NCBI GenBank assembly: GCA_965248475.1
Contig: OZ252106.1
Span: 1,455,640 to 1,519,639, forward strand
DNA: 64,000 nucleotides
Direction: 5' to 3'
Source: Dehalococcoidia bacterium
GTDB lineage: Bacteria; Chloroflexota; Dehalococcoidia; Lucifugimonadales; G965248475
Part shown: piece after piece, positions 4,199 to 52,939 of the stretch
Layout: each line of letters opens with the position of its first letter
Numbering within the stretch: position 1 is the stretch's first letter
Notes under the pieces: generated by a model
Seen by the model: the letters and a program-made list of their open reading frames with translations, nothing else
What the model was told of the DNA's origin: nothing
Databases searched by the model: none
Translations under genes and position numbers: made by a program

Positions 4199-4714
4199 TT
4201 ATGCCGGATAGACCAACTCACCGCCAGCGGCCTGGCGCGAGGCCTGGCGGCTGGTTTCTGCCCCCTTGGTCTTCCAGAATATCTCGGCGATACCCTGAAC
4301 GGCGGTCAGAAGGTCCTGAGCGGCCTGCATGTCATTGTTCTGCCTGGACCTTGAGCCCAGCTTCATCACGTTGAAGACACGCTCGTGGAGGTCGGTGTGC
4401 TCCTGGGCGTGTTCGGGTCGGAAGTAGTCTCCCCAGAGAACACGAATCTCACTCTTGCAAAGTTCAGCGTGCTGCTCCTTGGTAGCAACATAGCGGCCCA
4501 GGCTGGCATTATAGGCGGCGCGGTCCTGGGCCGATGCGTCATTGCCTGGGGCCTCCAGCGCCTCGATTAGCTGGTTCATACGTACGACTGTGAGGGCCGC
4601 GATCTGGGCCCCGTGGGGATCGTAGATACCACAGGGAACGTCGCAGTGGGCGTGTACCGCCATTGTCAGGGTAAGTCGGTCAACCACCCTGCTGAATACG
4701 CTAAGTAAAGACAT
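4199..4714 (-). CDS. sodN: nickel superoxide dismutase precursor
   Basis: Ni-hook motif HCDVPCGIYDP lies directly after a short propeptide (..TMAVHA|HCDVPCG). The cognate protease gene is adjacent and divergent. Confidence 0.9.
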   Translation of the reverse strand: MSLLSVFSRVVDRLTLTMAVHAHCDVPCGIYDPHGAQIAALTVVRMNQLIEALEAPGNDASAQDRAAYNASLGRYVATKEQHAELCKSEIRVLWGDYFRPEHAQEHTDLHERVFNVMKLGSRSRQNNDMQAAQDLLTAVQGIAEIFWKTKGAETSRQASRQAAGGELVYPA

Positions 4715-4785
4715 GTTTCCCTCCCAAAACCTGGTTCGTTTGTAGGTACATCAGCTTACAGTAAGAGCCGTCGCACAGCAACACC

Positions 4786-4831
4786 GGGCAGGGCGTGCCC
4801 TGCCCCCACAGTCCCGACAGGTCGGGACACC
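4786..4831. repeat. two adjacent GC-rich palindromes in the sodN/sodX divergent region
   Basis: GGGCAGGGC-GT-GCCCTGCCC at 4786-4805. GTCCCGAC-AG-GTCGGGAC followed by ACC at 4811-4831. The second is near-identical to the element at 49575-49595. Confidence 0.85.
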
Positions 4832-4966
4832 ACATTCTTCCGTCGTTCGCTTAGCCGAACCTATGCACCTAATAAATACCTTGGCAAAAGATGAGATGAC
4901 ACCAGAAGTTGTTGTACAAGTCGTGCGCTGCCCCCACATATTTACCACCCTGCTACAATCGCACCC

Positions 4967-5539
4967 ATGAGCGCACCTATGGGACACGGCCAATCAAACT
5001 CCGAATCTCCAGCGCTCCAACGTGGCGATTCCAGGCTGGCAAGAGCGGCTGGCCGGATATTACGCCTGCCCGGAGTGTTCCAAGTAGCAAGCCTATTGAC
5101 GTCAGTGCGAATCAGGGTGTACGGAGACAGCATGCGGCCTCTGCTGGCCGAAGGCCAGCGTCTCCTTGTTAGCCGTCTTGCCTACCATTGGTCTTCACCA
5201 CAGCGAGGCGACCTGGTGGTAATCAGAGACCCCATACAGCCAGACATGCGCTACATCAAGCGCATCGTAGGTCTGCCAGGGGAGCATGTCCAGATGGATG
5301 GCGGCAATGTTGCCATCGACGGGGAGACCCTAGTTGAACCGTACGCTCAGGGCAGCGAGAGTGTCGCCAGCCCGTTTCCCAGCCAGTGGGTGCCGGACGA
5401 GACAGAATTCTTTGTGCTGGGAGACCGGCGGCAGGACAGCCGGGACAGCCGTACCTTCGGCCCAGTAGGGAGGCGCAACATCATAGGAAAGACCTGGGTG
5501 AGATACTGGCCACCAAGGGCATTGGGGAGGCCGAGTTGA
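4967..5539 (+). CDS. sodX: S26-family peptidase, Ni-SOD maturation protease
   Basis: Signal-peptidase-I catalytic Ser box (YGDSMRPLL) and Lys box (YIKRIVGLPGEHV). Divergently paired with sodN. Exact start uncertain. Confidence 0.8.
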   Translation: MSAPMGHGQSNSESPALQRGDSRLARAAGRILRLPGVFQVASLLTSVRIRVYGDSMRPLLAEGQRLLVSRLAYHWSSPQRGDLVVIRDPIQPDMRYIKRIVGLPGEHVQMDGGNVAIDGETLVEPYAQGSESVASPFPSQWVPDETEFFVLGDRRQDSRDSRTFGPVGRRNIIGKTWVRYWPPRALGRPS

Positions 5540-11492: not shown

Positions 11493-12677
11493 CTATCCCA
11501 CCTCTGTGATTACGCCGGAGCCGACCGTTCTGCCGCCTTCTCTGATGGCGAAACGGAGCCCAGGTTCCATAGCTATCGGGTAGATGAGCTTCATTCTTAC
11601 CGCCACGTTGTCACCTGGCATGACCATCTCCACACCCTCGGGCAGTTCGATCTCGCCAGTGATGTCGGTGGTCCGAATATAGAATTGGGGCTTGTAGCCG
11701 TTGAAGAAGGGCGTATGACGGCCTCCCTCATCCTTGGTGAGAACGTACACCTGCCCATGCGCCTCCATGCTGGGCGTCATAGTCCCAGGCTTGGCGAGCA
11801 CCTGACCACGGATCACCTGGTCCCGGTCGACGCCGCGCAGCAGGCAACCGACCGCGTCGCCCGGCTCACCCTCATCCAGCGTCTTATGGAACATCTCTAC
11901 GCCGGTGACGATGGTCTTTCGAGTATCTTCGATGCCCACGATCTCTATCTCGTCGCCAGTCTTGACAATGCCTCGCTCCACACGGCCGGTGACCACGGTA
12001 CCCCGACCCTTGATGCCAAATACGTCCTCCACAGGCATAAGGAAGGGTTGGTCCTTGGGCCGATCAGGAATTGGTATGTACTCATCCACCGCCTTCATCA
12101 GGTCCAAGATACCCTGCTTCGCCTCTTCGTCCCCATCCAGCGCCTTGAGGGCGGATACCCGAACTATCGGCGTGTCATCACCTGGGAAGTCATACCGGCT
12201 GAGGAGCTCTCTGACCTCCAGCTCCACAAGCTCCAGCAACTCTTCGTCCTCCATCATGTCAACCTTGTTTAGGGCAACCACGATACGAGGAACCTCCACC
12301 TGCCGGGCCAGGAGGATATGCTCCCGGGTCTGAGGCATGGGGCCGTCCGGAGCGCTGACCACCAGGATGGCACCATCCATCTGAGCAGCGCCGGTGATCA
12401 TGTTCTTTATGTAGTCGGCATGACCTGGGCAGTCCACATGGGCATAGTGCCGACTTTCCGTTTCATACTCAACGTGGGTGATGGCTATGGTCACGCCCCG
12501 CGCCTTCTCTTCTGGCGCGTTGTCAATGGAGTCAAATGACCTTATCTCGGTACCAGTCCCGGATTCGGCCAGTACCTGGGTAATGGCCGATGTGAGTGTA
12601 GTCTTACCATGGTCAACGTGACCTATTGTGCCCACGTTCACGTGGGGTTTGGTTCGCTCGAACTTCTGTTTAGCCAT
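11493..12677 (-). CDS. tuf: elongation factor Tu
   Basis: 394 aa with [18 protein letters not shown] and NKVD G-motifs. Confidence 0.98.
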
Positions 12678-12695: not shown

Positions 12696-12771
12696 TGGAG
12701 CCCACAATCGGACTTGAACCGATGACCTCGTTCTTACCAAGAACGTGCTCTACCTGCTGAGCTATGTGGGC
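12696..12771 (-). tRNA. tRNA-Thr (anticodon GGT), CCA encoded
   Basis: Sense strand GCCCACA..TGTGGGC-T-CCA. Anticodon arm CGTTC-TTGGTAA-GAACG, T-loop TTCAAGT. Confidence 0.9.
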
Positions 12772-12813
12772 TTCTCCTAGTTTCCTTTAATTATCTGGCT
12801 GGTCGGGATTCGT

Positions 12814-12901
12814 TGGTGGAGGGGGTAGGATTCGAACCTACGAAGCCCTTCCGGGCGCCAGATTTACAGTCTGGTGGTATTAACCACTCACCCACCCCTC
12901 C
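12814..12901 (-). tRNA. tRNA-Tyr (anticodon GTA), long variable arm, CCA encoded
   Basis: Sense strand GGAGGGG..CCCCTCC-A-CCA. Anticodon arm CCAGA-CTGTAAA-TCTGG. Confidence 0.9.
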
Positions 12902-12966
12902 AAGCAACAATCCAGATTAGCATATCAAAACAGAGGATACGCCGCAAAGGGATATTCCTGTATTGG

Positions 12967-13042
12967 TGGAGCCCGAGAGGGGATTCGAACCCACCAACCT
13001 ACCGATTACAAATCGGTTGCGCTGCCATTGCGCCACTCGGGC
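12967..13042 (-). tRNA. tRNA-Thr (anticodon TGT), CCA encoded
   Basis: Sense strand GCCCGAG..CTCGGGC-T-CCA. Anticodon arm ACCGA-TTTGTAA-TCGGT. One mismatch in the T-stem. Confidence 0.85.
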
Positions 13043-13557: not shown

Positions 13558-15042
13558 TCAGGTTAGGTCCGACAGTGAGGGCCGGTCCGCAGAGGTCACG
13601 GGCACCTCCAACGTTACGGGCTCCATGCTCACGTCCTGGTTACGCGTCCTGCGCCGACCGCCAAGGCCGCTCTTGGCACCAGGCAACAGACTGCGCACCA
13701 CCTCAGCCAGGGAGTGCGCTCCGATGATCTCTATCTCTGTACCGCGAACATCTTCAACCTGTGCTGCAGCAACCACGGCCCGACGGAATCCGAGACGAGC
13801 CGCTTCAACTAGACGTCTGCCTAGCTGCGGAACGCCCCTCAGCTCGCCACCCAGGCCGACCTCTGCGACAGCCACGATGTCAGGGTCGCAGGGCACATTA
13901 CGGAAGCTGGATACCAGGGCCAGGGCGGTGGCCAGATCAGCAGCCGGCTCCTGCAGCCGTAGCCCTCCGACCACGTTGACTATGATGTCCTGGTCTCCCA
14001 GGGGAATGCCCAGACGCTTGCTGGTAACAGCGGTTACGAGCATGAGGCGTTGAAAGTCGATACCGGTAGCCGTTCTTCTGGGCTGCGCGAACACCGTTGG
14101 AGTGGTCAGCGCCTGCACCTCCGCCAGCAATGGCCTGCTGCCCTCCATGCTGATCGTCACAGTGGAGCCAGGGACATCTCCGCGACGGCTCGAAAGGAAT
14201 AGGTTAGACGGTTCCCACACCTCTTCCAGTCCCCGTTGCACCATCTGGAATATGCCGATCTCGTCAGTTGAGCCAAAGCGATTCTTGGCACAGCGTAGGA
14301 TGCGGTACTGCCCAAGCGCATCGCCTTCCATGTAGAGGACCACGTCAACCATATGCTCCAGGGTACGGGGCCCCGCTACTGAGCCGTCCTTGGTCACGTG
14401 GCCAGCCAGGAGCACAGGGGCGCTATGACTTTTGGCCCACTTCATCAGCATACGGGTGCACTCCCTCACCTGTGTCACGCTACCGGGGCCCGACGGCACC
14501 TCTTCGGAGGAGAGTGTCTGAACGGAGTCGATGACCACCAAGGCGGGATGAACAACATCCATTTGGGCTACGATCTGCTCCAACTCAGTCTCACCCAGGA
14601 AGAGTACGCCTTCAGCGCTCACTCCCAGCCGCTCCGCACGAAGTCGCACCTGTTGTGCAGACTCCTCTCCTGAGACGTACAGCAGACGGTTACCCTGAAG
14701 GGCCAGGAAGGCGGCGGTCTGAAGAAGGAGAGTGGATTTCCCTACGCCCGGGTCACCGGCTATCAAGACCATTGCACCAGGGACAATACCGCCACCAAGA
14801 ACCCTATCTAATTCTTGGAATGAGGTCGTGATCCGGGGTACGTCACTGGTGGTCACAGTGGCCAGGTCCTGGACACCAGTGCCATCCTCCGGCAACCATC
14901 GTTCACGTTTTGAACGCATTGGCATTTGGACCTGAGCCAGGGTGTTCCACTGACCACAGTGGGAGCATCGGCCCTCCCATTTGGGCGACTGACCGCCACA
15001 CTCCTGACAAACGTATGAGGTACGAGACCTCGCCCGATTCAT
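13558..15042 (-). CDS. radA: DNA repair protein RadA/Sms
   Basis: N-terminal zinc finger (YVCQECGGQSPKWEGRCSHCGQWNT), Walker A GDPGVGKST, KNRFG motif and a Lon-like C-terminal domain. Start taken at the internal Met (MNRARS..). Confidence 0.92.
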   Translation of the reverse strand: MNRARSRTSYVCQECGGQSPKWEGRCSHCGQWNTLAQVQMPMRSKRERWLPEDGTGVQDLATVTTSDVPRITTSFQELDRVLGGGIVPGAMVLIAGDPGVGKSTLLLQTAAFLALQGNRLLYVSGEESAQQVRLRAERLGVSAEGVLFLGETELEQIVAQMDVVHPALVVIDSVQTLSSEEVPSGPGSVTQVRECTRMLMKWAKSHSAPVLLAGHVTKDGSVAGPRTLEHMVDVVLYMEGDALGQYRILRCAKNRFGSTDEIGIFQMVQRGLEEVWEPSNLFLSSRRGDVPGSTVTISMEGSRPLLAEVQALTTPTVFAQPRRTATGIDFQRLMLVTAVTSKRLGIPLGDQDIIVNVVGGLRLQEPAADLATALALVSSFRNVPCDPDIVAVAEVGLGGELRGVPQLGRRLVEAARLGFRRAVVAAAQVEDVRGTEIEIIGAHSLAEVVRSLLPGAKSGLGGRRRTRNQDVSMEPVTLEVPVTSADRPSLSDLT

Positions 15043-15223
15043 ATCAACTCCCGGGGCAATTTGGCGCCATTGTAGCATGCGTCCATGGAGCGGGTAAGCA
15101 CCGGGCGGCAGTGTTTGCCTCACATCCAGAGGGTGTGCCCTGCAACCAAGTTTCTCCAGCGTTCGACAGCAACACCAGCCTCTCGGCGTCGGTGAAAAGT
15201 ACGCTTCCGAGCGACGTTCAGGT

Positions 15224-19181: not shown

Positions 19182-19299
19182 CCCTGGCAGTGGCCTATTT
19201 TCCCATACCCCTGCGGGCAGAGTATCGTCAGCGCTGGGGCGTTTCACGACCGTGTTCGGGATGGGAACGGGTGGTTCCACCCCGCTCCAACCACCAGGG
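19182..19299 (-). rRNA. rrf: 5S ribosomal RNA, not linked to 16S/23S in this window
   Basis: Minus strand reads CCTGGTGGTTGGAGCGGGGTGGAACCACCCGTTCCCATCCCGAACACGGTCGTGAAACGCCCCAGCGCTGACGATACTCTGCCCGCAGGGGTATGGGAAAATAGGCCACTGCCAGGG. This carries the universal 5S loop motifs (CCCGAACACGG..AGCGC.GA.GATACT). Confidence 0.9.
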
Positions 19300-19366: not shown

Positions 19367-20027
19367 CTAGGGGTGTCCCTCCATGATGGACCTGGGCATA
19401 GCGCGGGCGTCCGGACCTAACACGCGGGGCCTCTGAATATCGTAGACGCGGCGCAGCTCTGCCACGGGGTCCGGGTGCTCATCCACCTGAAGACGGAACA
19501 TTGAGTAGTCCTCATCGCCCATCACGAGCAGGGCCGCGGATACCCGGCCCCGCTTGTCGCCACCGCCTGCTTGGCCGCCCTCCAATGCGGCGACCAGGCG
19601 GTCTGAAAGGAAGCCGGTGGACGCGATGAAACTTTCAGCCATGGTTTCAATGGTCTCCTGCCCAACCAGCATATTCCCAGCGACTGAGAAGCCATCGCCG
19701 GTCCTGTGGCCGCACCAGTCCACGTTTTCGTCGCCGGTGTGGGCCGCAGTGCCACCCATCCCGTCCACGATGTGAAGCTGGCGGTTGGCCCGACCCGGGT
19801 CCAAGGAGATCACCTTCTCCAGAGCATCCTGAGCTGTGACCCCCCGCTCAAGAAGCTGAATAGCGTAGAGGGCCAGATACGGGTTGCTGCTAGCCTGTGA
19901 AGAGACTGCACCCACACCTGCGGCGGCATAAGGGCACAGTCCGCCGACGTTGGGCACCGCCGTAGAGATGGCGACGCCAAGGTGGCCGGTATCAGGGTCC
20001 CGCGCGACAGACAATAGAAAAGGTCAT
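19367..20027 (-). CDS. DUF1028-family (Ntn-hydrolase-like) protein; first 6 codons out of frame (net +1)
   Basis: AAGGAG SD plus ATG 20027 gives MTFSIV, the family's conserved N-terminus carrying the Thr nucleophile. The frame then slips at GTCTGTC (20006-20012) into ..ARDPDTGHLGVAISTAV... Confidence 0.75.
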
Positions 20028-20056: not shown

Positions 20057-20092
20057 CCAGAAAGGCTAGCACCCCCAGAAAGGCTAGCACCC
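20057..20092. repeat. perfect tandem duplication, 2 x 18 bp (CCAGAAAGGCTAGCACCC)
   Basis: Read directly: copies at 20057-20074 and 20075-20092. Each contains the palindrome GCTAGC. It lies between the DUF1028 start and the selenoprotein promoter. Confidence 0.9.
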
Positions 20093-20138
20093 AATGTTTC
20101 CCTGCCTCAAGTGCCCAATCAATGTACGTTTTGAGCGG

Positions 20139-20167
20139 TGGACAGGATACGCCTCTTACCATATACT
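20139..20167 (+). promoter_or_regulatory. candidate promoter for the SelW-like gene
   Basis: TGGACA-17 nt-TATACT, about 55 nt upstream of ATG 20222. Confidence 0.35.
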
Positions 20168-20221
20168 ATCAGGCAGAGTAGATTGGGGTCGGTGTTGCGA
20201 AATATTAAGGAGGTGATGCCT

Positions 20222-20503
20222 ATGTTAGATAACTCAGGCAAAATGCAGATGGAGATTCGATACTGCCTCAGCTGAGGCTACCTCCCTCAGGCGGCGTGGA
20301 TCGCCGCTGAAGTCTGGTCCGAGTTCAAGAAGGACGTTGGCATCGCCATAATCCCCACTGACGACGGACGGCTTGAGATCCTGCTGGATGGTGAGATGCT
20401 GTTCGACCGCAAAGCGGAAGGCGGCGCCTACCCCTCCCTGGAAAAGGTCAGGGAGCTCAAGAAGACGGTGAGGACGCAGTTGGAGCGGGTTGCCGTAGCC
20501 TAG
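20222..20503 (+). CDS. SelW-like (Rdx family) selenoprotein, UGA-Sec at codon 18
   Basis: AAGGAGG (20207-20213) plus ATG 20222. Translation: MLDNSGKMQMEIRYCLS-[TGA 20273-20275]-GYLPQAAWIAAEVWSEFKKDVGIAIIPTDDGRLEILLDGEMLFDRKAEGGAYPSLEKVRELKKTVRTQLERVAVA-stop. YCLSUGY matches the SelW YCGAUGY redox motif. A hairpin and a terminator follow. Confidence 0.85.
20288..20310 (+). promoter_or_regulatory. putative bacterial SECIS hairpin
   Basis: GCGGCG-TGGAT-CGCCGC (20291-20307) starts 16 nt after the UGA. There are G residues in the apical loop. Confidence 0.6.
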
Positions 20504-20538
20504 CTAGCCTGGCTGACAGTAAAAGATCCTGAAGCATA

Positions 20539-20576
20539 AGAGGAGGCCTGGGAAACCAGGCCTCCTCTCTTTTTAC
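20539..20576 (+). terminator. rho-independent terminator of the SelW-like gene
   Basis: AGAGGAGGCCTGG-GAAA-CCAGGCCTCCTCT followed by CTTTTTAC. Confidence 0.75.
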
Positions 20577-20697
20577 TCTTTTTGCCGCTCTTGATCCTGA
20601 CTGGCCCGGACACCCACTCTCTCTACTGCTGGCGAAGGCTGCGACCTAAGCCACAATTGGAGATATGGGTGCAGGACACGCCCTACCAGGGGAAGAC

Positions 20698-34144: not shown

Positions 34145-35362
34145 ATGGCTTCAAAGCAGTATGACATAGCCATCATCGGAGGCGGCATCCTGGGGTTAGC
34201 CACAGCCATGCAGCTTTCGCACAACTACCCGAAACAACGGATCGTCGTGTTGGAGAAGGAGCAGGAGCTGGCCCGCCATCAGACGGGCCGCAACAGCGGC
34301 GTAATCCACTCCGGCCTGTACTACCGTCCCGGCTCTGCAAAGGCCACCTTCTGCGTGGATGGAGCCAAGCGCATGAGGGAGTTCTGCGACAATCACAACA
34401 TAAAGTACGACCTGGTGGGTAAGGTGGTCGTGGCCACCAGCGAGGAGGAGCTGCCGGCGCTGGATACCCTTTTCGAGCGCGGCACCGCCAACGGAGTCGA
34501 GGGGATCGAGATGATAGGGCGCGAGGAACTCAGCGAAATGGAGCCGTTTACGCAAGGCGTACGCGCAATTCGCTGTCCCATGACGGGGATTGTTGACTAC
34601 AAGCAGGTCTGCTCCGCCTACGCAACGGAGTTCCGGGAGAGTGGCGGGGATATCGTCACCGACACCAGGGTCCAGAAGATAGCCCGTTCCAACGGTCGCA
34701 CGCTCCTGGAGACCACCCAGGGAGACGTAGAAGCGGGGCACCTTATCAACTGCGCGGGCCTGCAGGCCGATGTCATGGTCAGCAGAATGGGCCTCCCTTC
34801 AGACGTGCGTATCATCCCTTTCCGAGGCGAATACTACACACTGGTGCCGGCGAAGCATCACATGGTCAAGGGGCTGATCTATCCTGTGCCCAACCCCTTA
34901 TTCCCATTCCTGGGGGTGCATTTCACGCGCAGGATAACCGGCGAGGTAGAGGCCGGGCCCAACGCTGTCCTAGCCTTTGCCCGTGAGGGATACCGCAAGA
35001 GAAACATCAATATGCCTGAGTTCATGGGAACGCTGACCTACCCCGGTTTCTGGCGTATGGCCAAGAGGTATTGGAAGACAGGTATGGGCGAGATGCAGCG
35101 CTCCTTCAGCAAGCGAGCGTTCACCAAGGCGCTTCAGAAGCTGATGCCGGAGCTTCAGGAGAGCGACCTGGCGCCGGCGGGTTCGGGCGTGAGGGCCCAA
35201 GCGGTGGACAGGAAAGGCAACCTTCTGGACGACTTCAGCATTGTGGAGACGGGGGACGCCATCCATGTGCTGAACGCCCCATCACCGGCAGCGACCTCGT
35301 CCCTGGCAATCGCCGACCATATCGTTGGGCTGGCGAGCAGCTCTTTTGGGCTGGAGAGATAA
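34145..35362 (+). CDS. lhgO: L-2-hydroxyglutarate oxidase/dehydrogenase (FAD)
   Basis: YDIAIIGGGILGLATA and TGRNSGVIHSGLYYRPGS. Confidence 0.88.
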   Translation: MASKQYDIAIIGGGILGLATAMQLSHNYPKQRIVVLEKEQELARHQTGRNSGVIHSGLYYRPGSAKATFCVDGAKRMREFCDNHNIKYDLVGKVVVATSEEELPALDTLFERGTANGVEGIEMIGREELSEMEPFTQGVRAIRCPMTGIVDYKQVCSAYATEFRESGGDIVTDTRVQKIARSNGRTLLETTQGDVEAGHLINCAGLQADVMVSRMGLPSDVRIIPFRGEYYTLVPAKHHMVKGLIYPVPNPLFPFLGVHFTRRITGEVEAGPNAVLAFAREGYRKRNINMPEFMGTLTYPGFWRMAKRYWKTGMGEMQRSFSKRAFTKALQKLMPELQESDLAPAGSGVRAQAVDRKGNLLDDFSIVETGDAIHVLNAPSPAATSSLAIADHIVGLASSSFGLER

Positions 35363-51649: not shown

Positions 51650-52939
51650 ATGAGCACGAACGGGCATAACCCTAACGGTCAGGTGGCGGAGTTAGAGCGA
51701 AGCTGGGCCGCAGACCCTCGCTGGGCGGGGATCAAGCGCGACTACACAGCCAGTGACGTAGTAAAGCTCCGGGGCAGTCTCAGGGTAGAACACACAATCG
51801 CCAAAGTGGGCGCTGAGCGGCTATGGGACATGCTGACTACGGACCCGTACCTCACCACCTTCGGCGCGCTCAACGGGTCGCAGGCGGTACAGATGGTCAA
51901 GGCCGGCCTCAAGGCCATCTACATGAGCGGCTGGCAGGTAGCGGCCGATGGCAACCTGGCCGGTAGCACCTACCCCGACCAGAGCCTCTACCCATCCAAC
52001 AGCGTTCCAGCCCTGGTCAAAAGGCTCAACAACGCGCTGATGCGGGCCGACCAGATCCAGACGCTGGATGGCGATGGTGATGTCTACTGGTACGCCCCAA
52101 TCCTGGCCGACGCCGAAGCAGGGTTCGGCGGCGCCATCCATGCATTTGAGCTGATGAAGAACATGATCGAGGCCGGCGCCTCCGGTGTCCATTTCGAGGA
52201 CCAGTTGGCAGCTGAGAAGAAGTGCGGCCACATGGGCGGCAAGGTCCTGGTGCCCACGGCCCAGTTCCTCCGCACCCTCAACGCCGCTCGCCTCGCCGCC
52301 GACGTCCAGGGAGTGCCCACGCTTCTGGTAGCCCGCACCGATGCCTTGGACGCACCGCTGATCACATCCGACATTGACCCCAGGGATGCCGAATTCCTGA
52401 CAGGTGAGCGCACGGCTGAGGGGTACTTCAACGTACATGGTGGAATGGAGTCCATCATCGCTAGGGGCCTCTCGTACTCGCCATACGCCGACATGCTCTG
52501 GTATGAGACATCCCACCCGGACCTGGAGGAGGCACGCGTTTTCGCGGAAGCCATCCACGCCCAGTTCCCCGGCAAGTTGCTCATGTACAACTGCTCACCC
52601 TCCTTCAACTGGAAACAGGCCATGGACGACGACACCATCGCCCGGTTCCGGACCGAGTTGGCCAGCATGGGGTACAAGTTCCAGTTCATAACACTGGCCG
52701 GGTGGCACATGATGAACCTGAACGCCTTTGAGCTGGCCGGGGAGTTCTTGGAGGAAGGTATGCCCGCATACGTCCGCCTTCAGGAGCGTGAGTTTGCCAA
52801 CGAGAGCCTGGGCTACACAGCCACCAAGCACCAGCAAGAGGTCGGCGCTGGCTACTTCGATGAGATTATGCTGAGCATCTCCGGAGGTCAGGCCGCAACG
52901 ACAGCGCTGGCAGGCTCCACCGAGGAGCGGCAGTTCTGA
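51650..52939 (+). CDS. aceA: isocitrate lyase
   Basis: Signature [13 protein letters not shown]; 429 aa. Confidence 0.95.

Follow-up and report, generated by a model that had tools for sequence, protein, structure and literature searches.

The 64,000-nucleotide stretch of Dehalococcoidia DNA analysed here (the window) carries on its forward strand a short gene with an in-frame TGA, flanked by a divergent DUF1028 gene and a convergent F420-glutamyl ligase gene. The wider setting consists of housekeeping genes (tuf, radA, clpC and rpsA) and a lone 5S rRNA gene. The mechanical ORF list gives just a 45-aa 5' piece of the short gene, 20138-20275, and an earlier note on this DNA had attributed the omission to the TGA. 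That note had also described a strong Shine-Dalgarno sequence ahead of the ATG, a read-through frame of 93 codons closed by TAG, a Y-C-L-S-[TGA]-G-Y context and a clean terminator on the 3' side. All of these are present, the frame with exactly the boundaries proposed (Table 1). Codons 13-20 read R-Y-C-L-S-TGA-G-Y, the frame runs MLDNSGKMQMEIRYCLS-TGA-GYLPQAAW..., and orthologues begin at the equivalent Met.

Table 1. Features of the SelW-like gene and its surroundings, in window coordinates.
Feature	Position	Strand	Evidence or remark
Promoter-like site TGGACA-17-TATACT	20139-20167	+	Consensus scan; some 55 nt ahead of the start codon
Shine-Dalgarno sequence AAGGAGG	20208-20214	+	Direct sequence reading; 7 nt 5' of ATG 20222
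Coding sequence, SelW-like (Rdx family) selenoprotein (predicted)	20222-20503	+	93 codons including Sec18; stop TAG 20501-20503
TGC, Cys15 of the C-x-x-U redox motif	20264-20266	+	Cys invariant in all orthologues
In-frame TGA, predicted Sec18 codon	20273-20275	+	TGA in 44/46 loci, TGC in 2/46
Bacterial SECIS hairpin (predicted)	20290-20308	+	Arms 20290-20296/20302-20308; apical loop UGGAU 20297-20301
Intrinsic terminator: 13-bp GC-rich stem, GAAA loop, T-run	20539-20577	+	Stem 20539-20568; fold z = -3.83

The promoter-like site agrees with the consensus at 10 of 12 positions, and one such site was found against 0.2 expected; it is a pattern match and as such a putative promoter. For the terminator, none of 200 shuffled sequences folded as well. 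With a promoter-like site, a Shine-Dalgarno sequence and a terminator of its own, the unit looks monocistronic. The first in-frame start after the TGA in the window is codon 59, which leaves 35 aa, and therefore no useful product is expected without read-through. Two repeats containing GCTAGC lie close by. A perfect 18-bp tandem duplication (CCAGAAAGGCTAGCACCC x2, 20057-20092), which includes the palindrome GCTAGC, sits between the two divergent genes, upstream of the promoter-like site, and a 9-nt repeat (TAGCCTAGC x2.1, 20496-20514) spans the stop codon. These repeats could be regulator sites or could have arisen by replication slippage.

Family membership was assessed by profile searches with the 93-aa read-through product, Cys being substituted for the TGA. 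As the earlier note had anticipated for the Rdx family, curated cutoffs were exceeded by both Pfam Rdx (PF10262; 56.7 bits versus a cutoff of 22.6, E = 2.9e-15) and the NCBIfam model TIGR02174 CXXU_selWTH (42.4 versus 34.2 bits). The PF10262 match covers profile positions 2-73 of 74 and residues 10-84 of the product, spanning the TGA. The equivalog model NF041051 SelTWH_Campy scored 52.7 bits, below its cutoff of 88, which marks the predicted protein as related to this Campylobacter-type group and no member of it. Judged from these matches, the predicted product belongs to the Rdx / SelW-SelT-SelH family. Among solved structures, sequence matches were obtained to 2FA8, 2OBK, 2P0G, 2OKA, 2OJL and 3DEX (E = 2.7e-13 to 3e-09), and these alignments set C-L-S-[TGA] against the CxxC motif of the solved bacterial SelW-related proteins (CTQC in 2FA8), the TGA standing opposite its second Cys. 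The fold was viewed in an AlphaFold model of orthologue P0001, a protein that shares 69% identity with the window product and has Trp at the Sec position (mean pLDDT 79.5, pTM 0.72). The model is thioredoxin-like, with the order beta1(8-15)-alpha1(21-38)-beta2-beta3-beta4-alpha2, and places the redox motif C15-L-S-U18 at the beta1/alpha1 junction, after strand 8-15 and before helix 21-38. Its best PDB matches by Foldseek are again these SelW-related proteins (TM 0.74-0.84, rmsd about 2.7 A), followed by mouse SelW (2NPB, TM 0.73) and then thioredoxins. The window gene product is accordingly expected to be a thioredoxin-like protein whose redox centre, Cys15-x-x-Sec18, would sit where strand beta1 gives way to helix alpha1.

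Among bacterial selenoproteins, a SelW-like family has been recognised since a survey of 2006, which found few Cys homologues of it in Sec-using organisms (PMC1794560). A 2026 review counts the "SELENOW-like protein, PF10262, CxxU" among the confidently predicted prokaryotic selenoproteins (PMC13188914). The window gene resembles the bacterial SelW-like selenoproteins in its CxxU at the beta1-alpha1 junction, its length of about 90 aa, its single Sec, a SECIS placed just downstream of the UGA and the small number of Cys forms in its clade. It differs from them in that its clade was found here only in Chloroflexota/Dehalococcoidia, and in that the SECIS apical loop UGGAU is fixed on an invariant Trp codon. 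The signature of this clade is FDRKAEGGxYP, compared with W/ERKxDGGFP in the solved homologues. The latter (2FA8, which is Atu0228, and 2OBK, 2P0G, 2OKA, 2OJL and 3DEX) have the redox motif at the same position; the solved bacterial SelW-related proteins, however, carry CxxC (e.g. CTQC) and involve no recoding, whereas the window gene combines CxxU with a SECIS. Mammalian SelW, which shares the C-x-x-U-G-Y motif with the window gene, is more distant. Mouse SelW has the same thioredoxin-like Rdx fold as the P0001 model, but its sequence similarity is marginal (E = 0.2). Furthermore, the SECIS of mammalian SelW lies in the 3' UTR and works with SBP2/eEFSec, whereas the window gene has its predicted SECIS within the coding sequence. 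The gene belongs to the SelW family and is no orthologue of mammalian SelW.

The status of the TGA was examined across relatives of the gene. A search of 5.8 billion proteins returned 11 relatives, 9 of them truncated at the N-terminus just after the TGA position and 2 full length with a Trp there. The DNA fetched for the full-length pair, P0001 and P0002, showed this Trp to be TGA called under code 4; the DNA upstream of the truncated relatives holds, in frame, the conserved ...EI[RK]YCxx-TGA-GY.... A scan of 185,579 species-representative genomes yielded 36 loci that are 43-64% identical to the window protein, 35 of which are labelled as Chloroflexota/Chloroflexi or Dehalococcoidia MAGs. The locus set compared below comprises 46 loci including the window, the 45 orthologous loci being nearly all from Dehalococcoidia/Chloroflexota MAGs. 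Within it, at protein identities of 43-70%, the Sec-position codon is TGA in all loci but two, L012 and L013, which have TGC and group apart as a somewhat divergent sub-branch marked by FDRLAQNGAFP. Protein-level conservation extends to both sides of the TGA (EI[RK]YCxx-TGA-GY[LF]P..AW) and takes in the 17 codons upstream, including the invariant Cys of the redox motif. Retention of TGA across this divergence, conservation of the protein on either side of it and a minority of Cys homologues together constitute the signature of a selenoprotein gene. A nonsense mutation private to this genome, which the earlier note had raised as the outcome that would overturn its reading, is excluded by the occurrence of TGA in 44 of the 46 loci.

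Public protein collections mis-annotate this SelW-like family systematically. The gene calls of orthologues P0003-P0011 begin just after the TGA, giving for example 72-aa products, and P0001 and P0002 (loci L005-L009) have the Sec-TGA rendered as Trp in public metagenome calls made with code 4 on short contigs; all orthologues in these collections other than P0001 and P0002 are cut to 54-73 aa. For the window itself, 8 of 10 other proteins are present in the protein collection, and the best match to the SelW-like ORF is at most 69% identical. The public annotation of this 2.4-Mb genome thus seems to lack the gene.

The hairpin proposed in the earlier note as SECIS-like, GCGGCG-TGGAT-CGCCGC at 20291-20307, is present and extends to 7 bp by a G-U pair between 20290 and 20308. 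Its dimensions are a 7-bp stem, a 5-nt loop UGGAU, a distance of 21 nt from UGA to loop and an MFE of -12.4 kcal/mol. The bacterial SECIS model describes a stem of 4-16 bp, a loop of 3-9 nt, a UGA-to-loop distance of 16-37 nt, a G as first or second loop nucleotide, mostly with G/U next to it on the 3' side, and an MFE of <= -7.5 kcal/mol (PMC13188914). Hairpin 20290-20308, whose loop starts U-G-G, satisfies every one of these published values. Compared with the E. coli fdhF-type SECIS and the bSECISearch consensus, the stem, loop, G position, spacing and MFE agree, but primary-sequence similarity to the fdhF element is absent. The third pair of the stem is a C-A mismatch in most orthologues, not a bulged U, and binding by SelB is predicted. 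As a single sequence, the 53-nt hairpin region does not fold better than chance (z = -0.86; 44 of 200 shuffles fold as well). The sequence is GC-rich and its own fold is not significant, so the case for a SECIS rests on comparative data.

For these data, 36 distinct sequences containing the TGA were aligned without gaps; 88% of cells are paired and 4 of the 7 pairs show compensatory changes, clustered in few sub-clades and thus representing perhaps 3-4 independent events. None of 500 shuffles reached the observed value on any of five measures, and a shift of the register by 1-3 columns abolished the signal. Moreover, hairpin 20290-20308 is the sole consensus structure predicted by RNAalifold. 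Most of the covariation falls on synonymous third positions. The third base of an Ala codon (GCC/GCG/GCU) follows that of the AUG/AUC/AUA codon (pair 39-45: C-G in 30, G-C in 4 and U-A in 2), and the third bases of two Ala codons swap together (pair 36-48: C-G in 32 and G-C in 4). In the arms, four codons are fourfold degenerate, and their third-position entropy is 0.20-0.89 bit; the range for 19 other conserved fourfold codons of the gene, 0.95-1.95 bit, lies entirely above it. Predicted hairpin energies are -4.6 to -13.1 kcal/mol for the Sec forms versus -1.9 and -3.5 kcal/mol for the two Cys forms, the only such controls, in which the hairpin is degraded. Collectively, the alignment indicates that the predicted hairpin is under constraint at the RNA level. 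It shows cleanly, by comparison, how a predicted SECIS is accommodated within conserved codons (A-A-W-I/M-A).

Decoding of the UGA as Sec would call for dedicated machinery, which we expect this genome to encode. We searched the window and 45 related loci by tblastn with E. coli SelA, SelB and SelD (NC_000913) as queries. Neither the 64-kb window nor the related loci, about 640 kb in total, yielded a selA, selB or selD gene, and ARAGORN and Rfam found no tRNA-Sec in the window or the related loci. The tblastn match in the window is EF-Tu and no Sec-machinery gene, and those in L011 and L014 are IF-2 by NCBIfam, adjoining nusA and truB. When 20100-20650 was scanned against Rfam at permissive settings, the matches were confined to the terminator and no better than chance. 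Within the class, Dehalogenimonas alkenigignens has selC, selA and selB together with a Sec-containing selD (PMC4918011), and two Dehalococcoidia MAGs, with 46-49 selenoprotein genes, are in the top ten of bacteria by selenoprotein number (PMC13326102).

Across the window, TGA terminates 22 of 68 long ORFs, radA (13558-15123) being one example; TGA is thus the normal stop here and has not been reassigned genome-wide. A scan of the window for other TGA-bridged ORFs found a Cys/Sec-type context in the SelW-like gene only. One candidate, 4199-4993 (-), proved to be an ordinary Ni superoxide dismutase gene with non-coding sequence upstream. The dismutase gene itself occupies 4199-4714 (-), matches PF09055 with 148 bits and contains the nickel-hook motif HCDVPCGIYDP. 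Its presence suggests that the organism is exposed to oxygen.

Several other accounts of the interrupted frame were weighed. The gene could be a pseudogene, a Cys-containing SelW-like gene in which TGC or TGT mutated to TGA in this genome. Relatives with Cys do exist, both L012 and L013 with TGC and the CxxC homologues in the PDB, and Sec machinery is not seen within the 64-kb window. Yet the TGA is common to nearly all loci across a wide range of protein identity; frame, Shine-Dalgarno sequence, promoter-like site, terminator and perfect 7-bp hairpin are all intact; and synonymous sites in the hairpin are constrained, which makes decay of this kind highly improbable. That TGA acts as a true stop, leaving only a 17-residue peptide or an internally initiated C-terminal fragment, would agree with the public calls of P0003-P0011 that start right after it. 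Such a fragment would be limited to the 35 aa that follow codon 59 in the window, however, and the arrangement would explain neither the protein-level conservation of the upstream codons with their redox Cys nor a Pfam domain that crosses the TGA; we regard it as extremely unlikely. Reassignment of TGA throughout the genome to Trp or Gly (codes 4/25), making it an ordinary sense codon, might seem to be favoured by the pipelines that gave Trp in P0001 and P0002, but these calls stem from contigs of 585-1672 bp called in metagenomic mode. The ORFs in the window that end in TGA include radA, with Pfam matches along its length, the GC content of about 60% is unlike that of known code-4/25 lineages, and homologues have Cys at the TGA position, not Trp or Gly. 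The chance of such reassignment is vanishingly small.

Two further proposals accept the hairpin as a recoding signal and differ from selenocysteine insertion in what is delivered. Mukai and colleagues have reportedly described systems in some anaerobes that recode UGA to Cys, and a tRNA(Sec)-like tRNA(Cys) with a SelB-like factor could act on the same hairpin. None of the observations speaks directly for Cys recoding. Against this, the family is defined by CxxU (TIGR02174; PMC13188914), Sec use is documented in Dehalococcoidia, and a plain TGC codon would do the same, as it does in two relatives; we consider recoding to Cys no more credible than the pseudogene. A broader version, in which the conserved UGA and hairpin are served by non-canonical recoding, for example a tRNA(Sec)-like tRNA delivering Cys via a SelB paralogue, would turn the Chloroflexota clade into a SelW-like subfamily peculiar to its lineage and with a function of its own, and this too seems very unlikely.

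The selenoprotein reading put forward in the earlier note is supported by the family profiles, the conservation of the TGA and the hairpin. We conclude that 20222-20503 on the forward strand is, with high probability, a functional, monocistronic gene for a Sec-containing SelW-like protein of the Rdx family of roughly 10 kDa. When a ribosome arrives at the UGA, the mRNA hairpin downstream would serve as a SECIS, presenting its apical loop 21 nt past the UGA in a structure predicted to recruit SelB-GTP-Sec-tRNA(Sec), and selenocysteine would be inserted in place of termination. The mature protein would most likely cycle between selenol/thiol and selenenylsulfide states as a predicted oxidoreductase of the thiol-disulfide type, a role that we infer generically from the family. 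The gene marks the organism as a probable user of selenocysteine. Its value is mainly that of an annotation correction and of a marker for the Sec trait. Dozens of Dehalococcoidia MAGs hold an orthologue that has been cut short or mistranslated. The understanding of selenoproteins is unchanged; the family is known and the recoding layout is standard for bacteria.

No gene neighbour is conserved across the SelW-like family; those found are specific to sub-clades, none being common to the window, so a functional partner cannot be inferred from shared neighbours. In the main Dehalococcoidia sub-clade, a FeS_assembly_P (PF01883) gene immediately precedes the SelW-like gene in 9 loci (L015 9051-9968 (+), for example), which would be one hint of a clade-specific function under the very unlikely non-canonical recoding. 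Hopanoid genes lie convergently downstream of the SelW-like gene in 12 loci of the same sub-clade (L015 10330-12144 (-)), the set comprising squalene-hopene cyclase, radical-SAM/DUF3463, PNP_UDP_1 and polyprenyl synthetase.

In the window, the divergent DUF1028 gene (19367-20027 (-)) has a 5' end that looks frameshifted. ATG 20027, preceded by an AAGGAG Shine-Dalgarno site, opens a frame that encodes MTFSIV, the N-terminus usual for the family, and stops after 11 codons. From TTG 20014 a different frame encodes the remainder of the gene (..SVARDPDTGHLGVAIST.., matching PF06267 from profile position 5). The reading frames suggest a 1-nt insertion or a GTCT duplication near 20008-20014, and the oddity may stem from a sequencing error, mark a pseudogene or reflect an alternative start.

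The 5S rRNA gene stands alone at 19182-19298 (-), 23S and 16S rRNA genes not being found in the 64 kb. The rRNA genes are thus unlinked, which is compatible with an origin in Chloroflexota/Dehalococcoidia. A tRNA-Thr/Tyr/Thr cluster (12696-13042 (-)) lies directly upstream of tuf, encoding EF-Tu (11493-12677 (-)). Elsewhere in the window, exact or near-identical matches in other sources name the product of 51650-52939 as isocitrate lyase and that of 34145-35362 as L-2-hydroxyglutarate oxidase.
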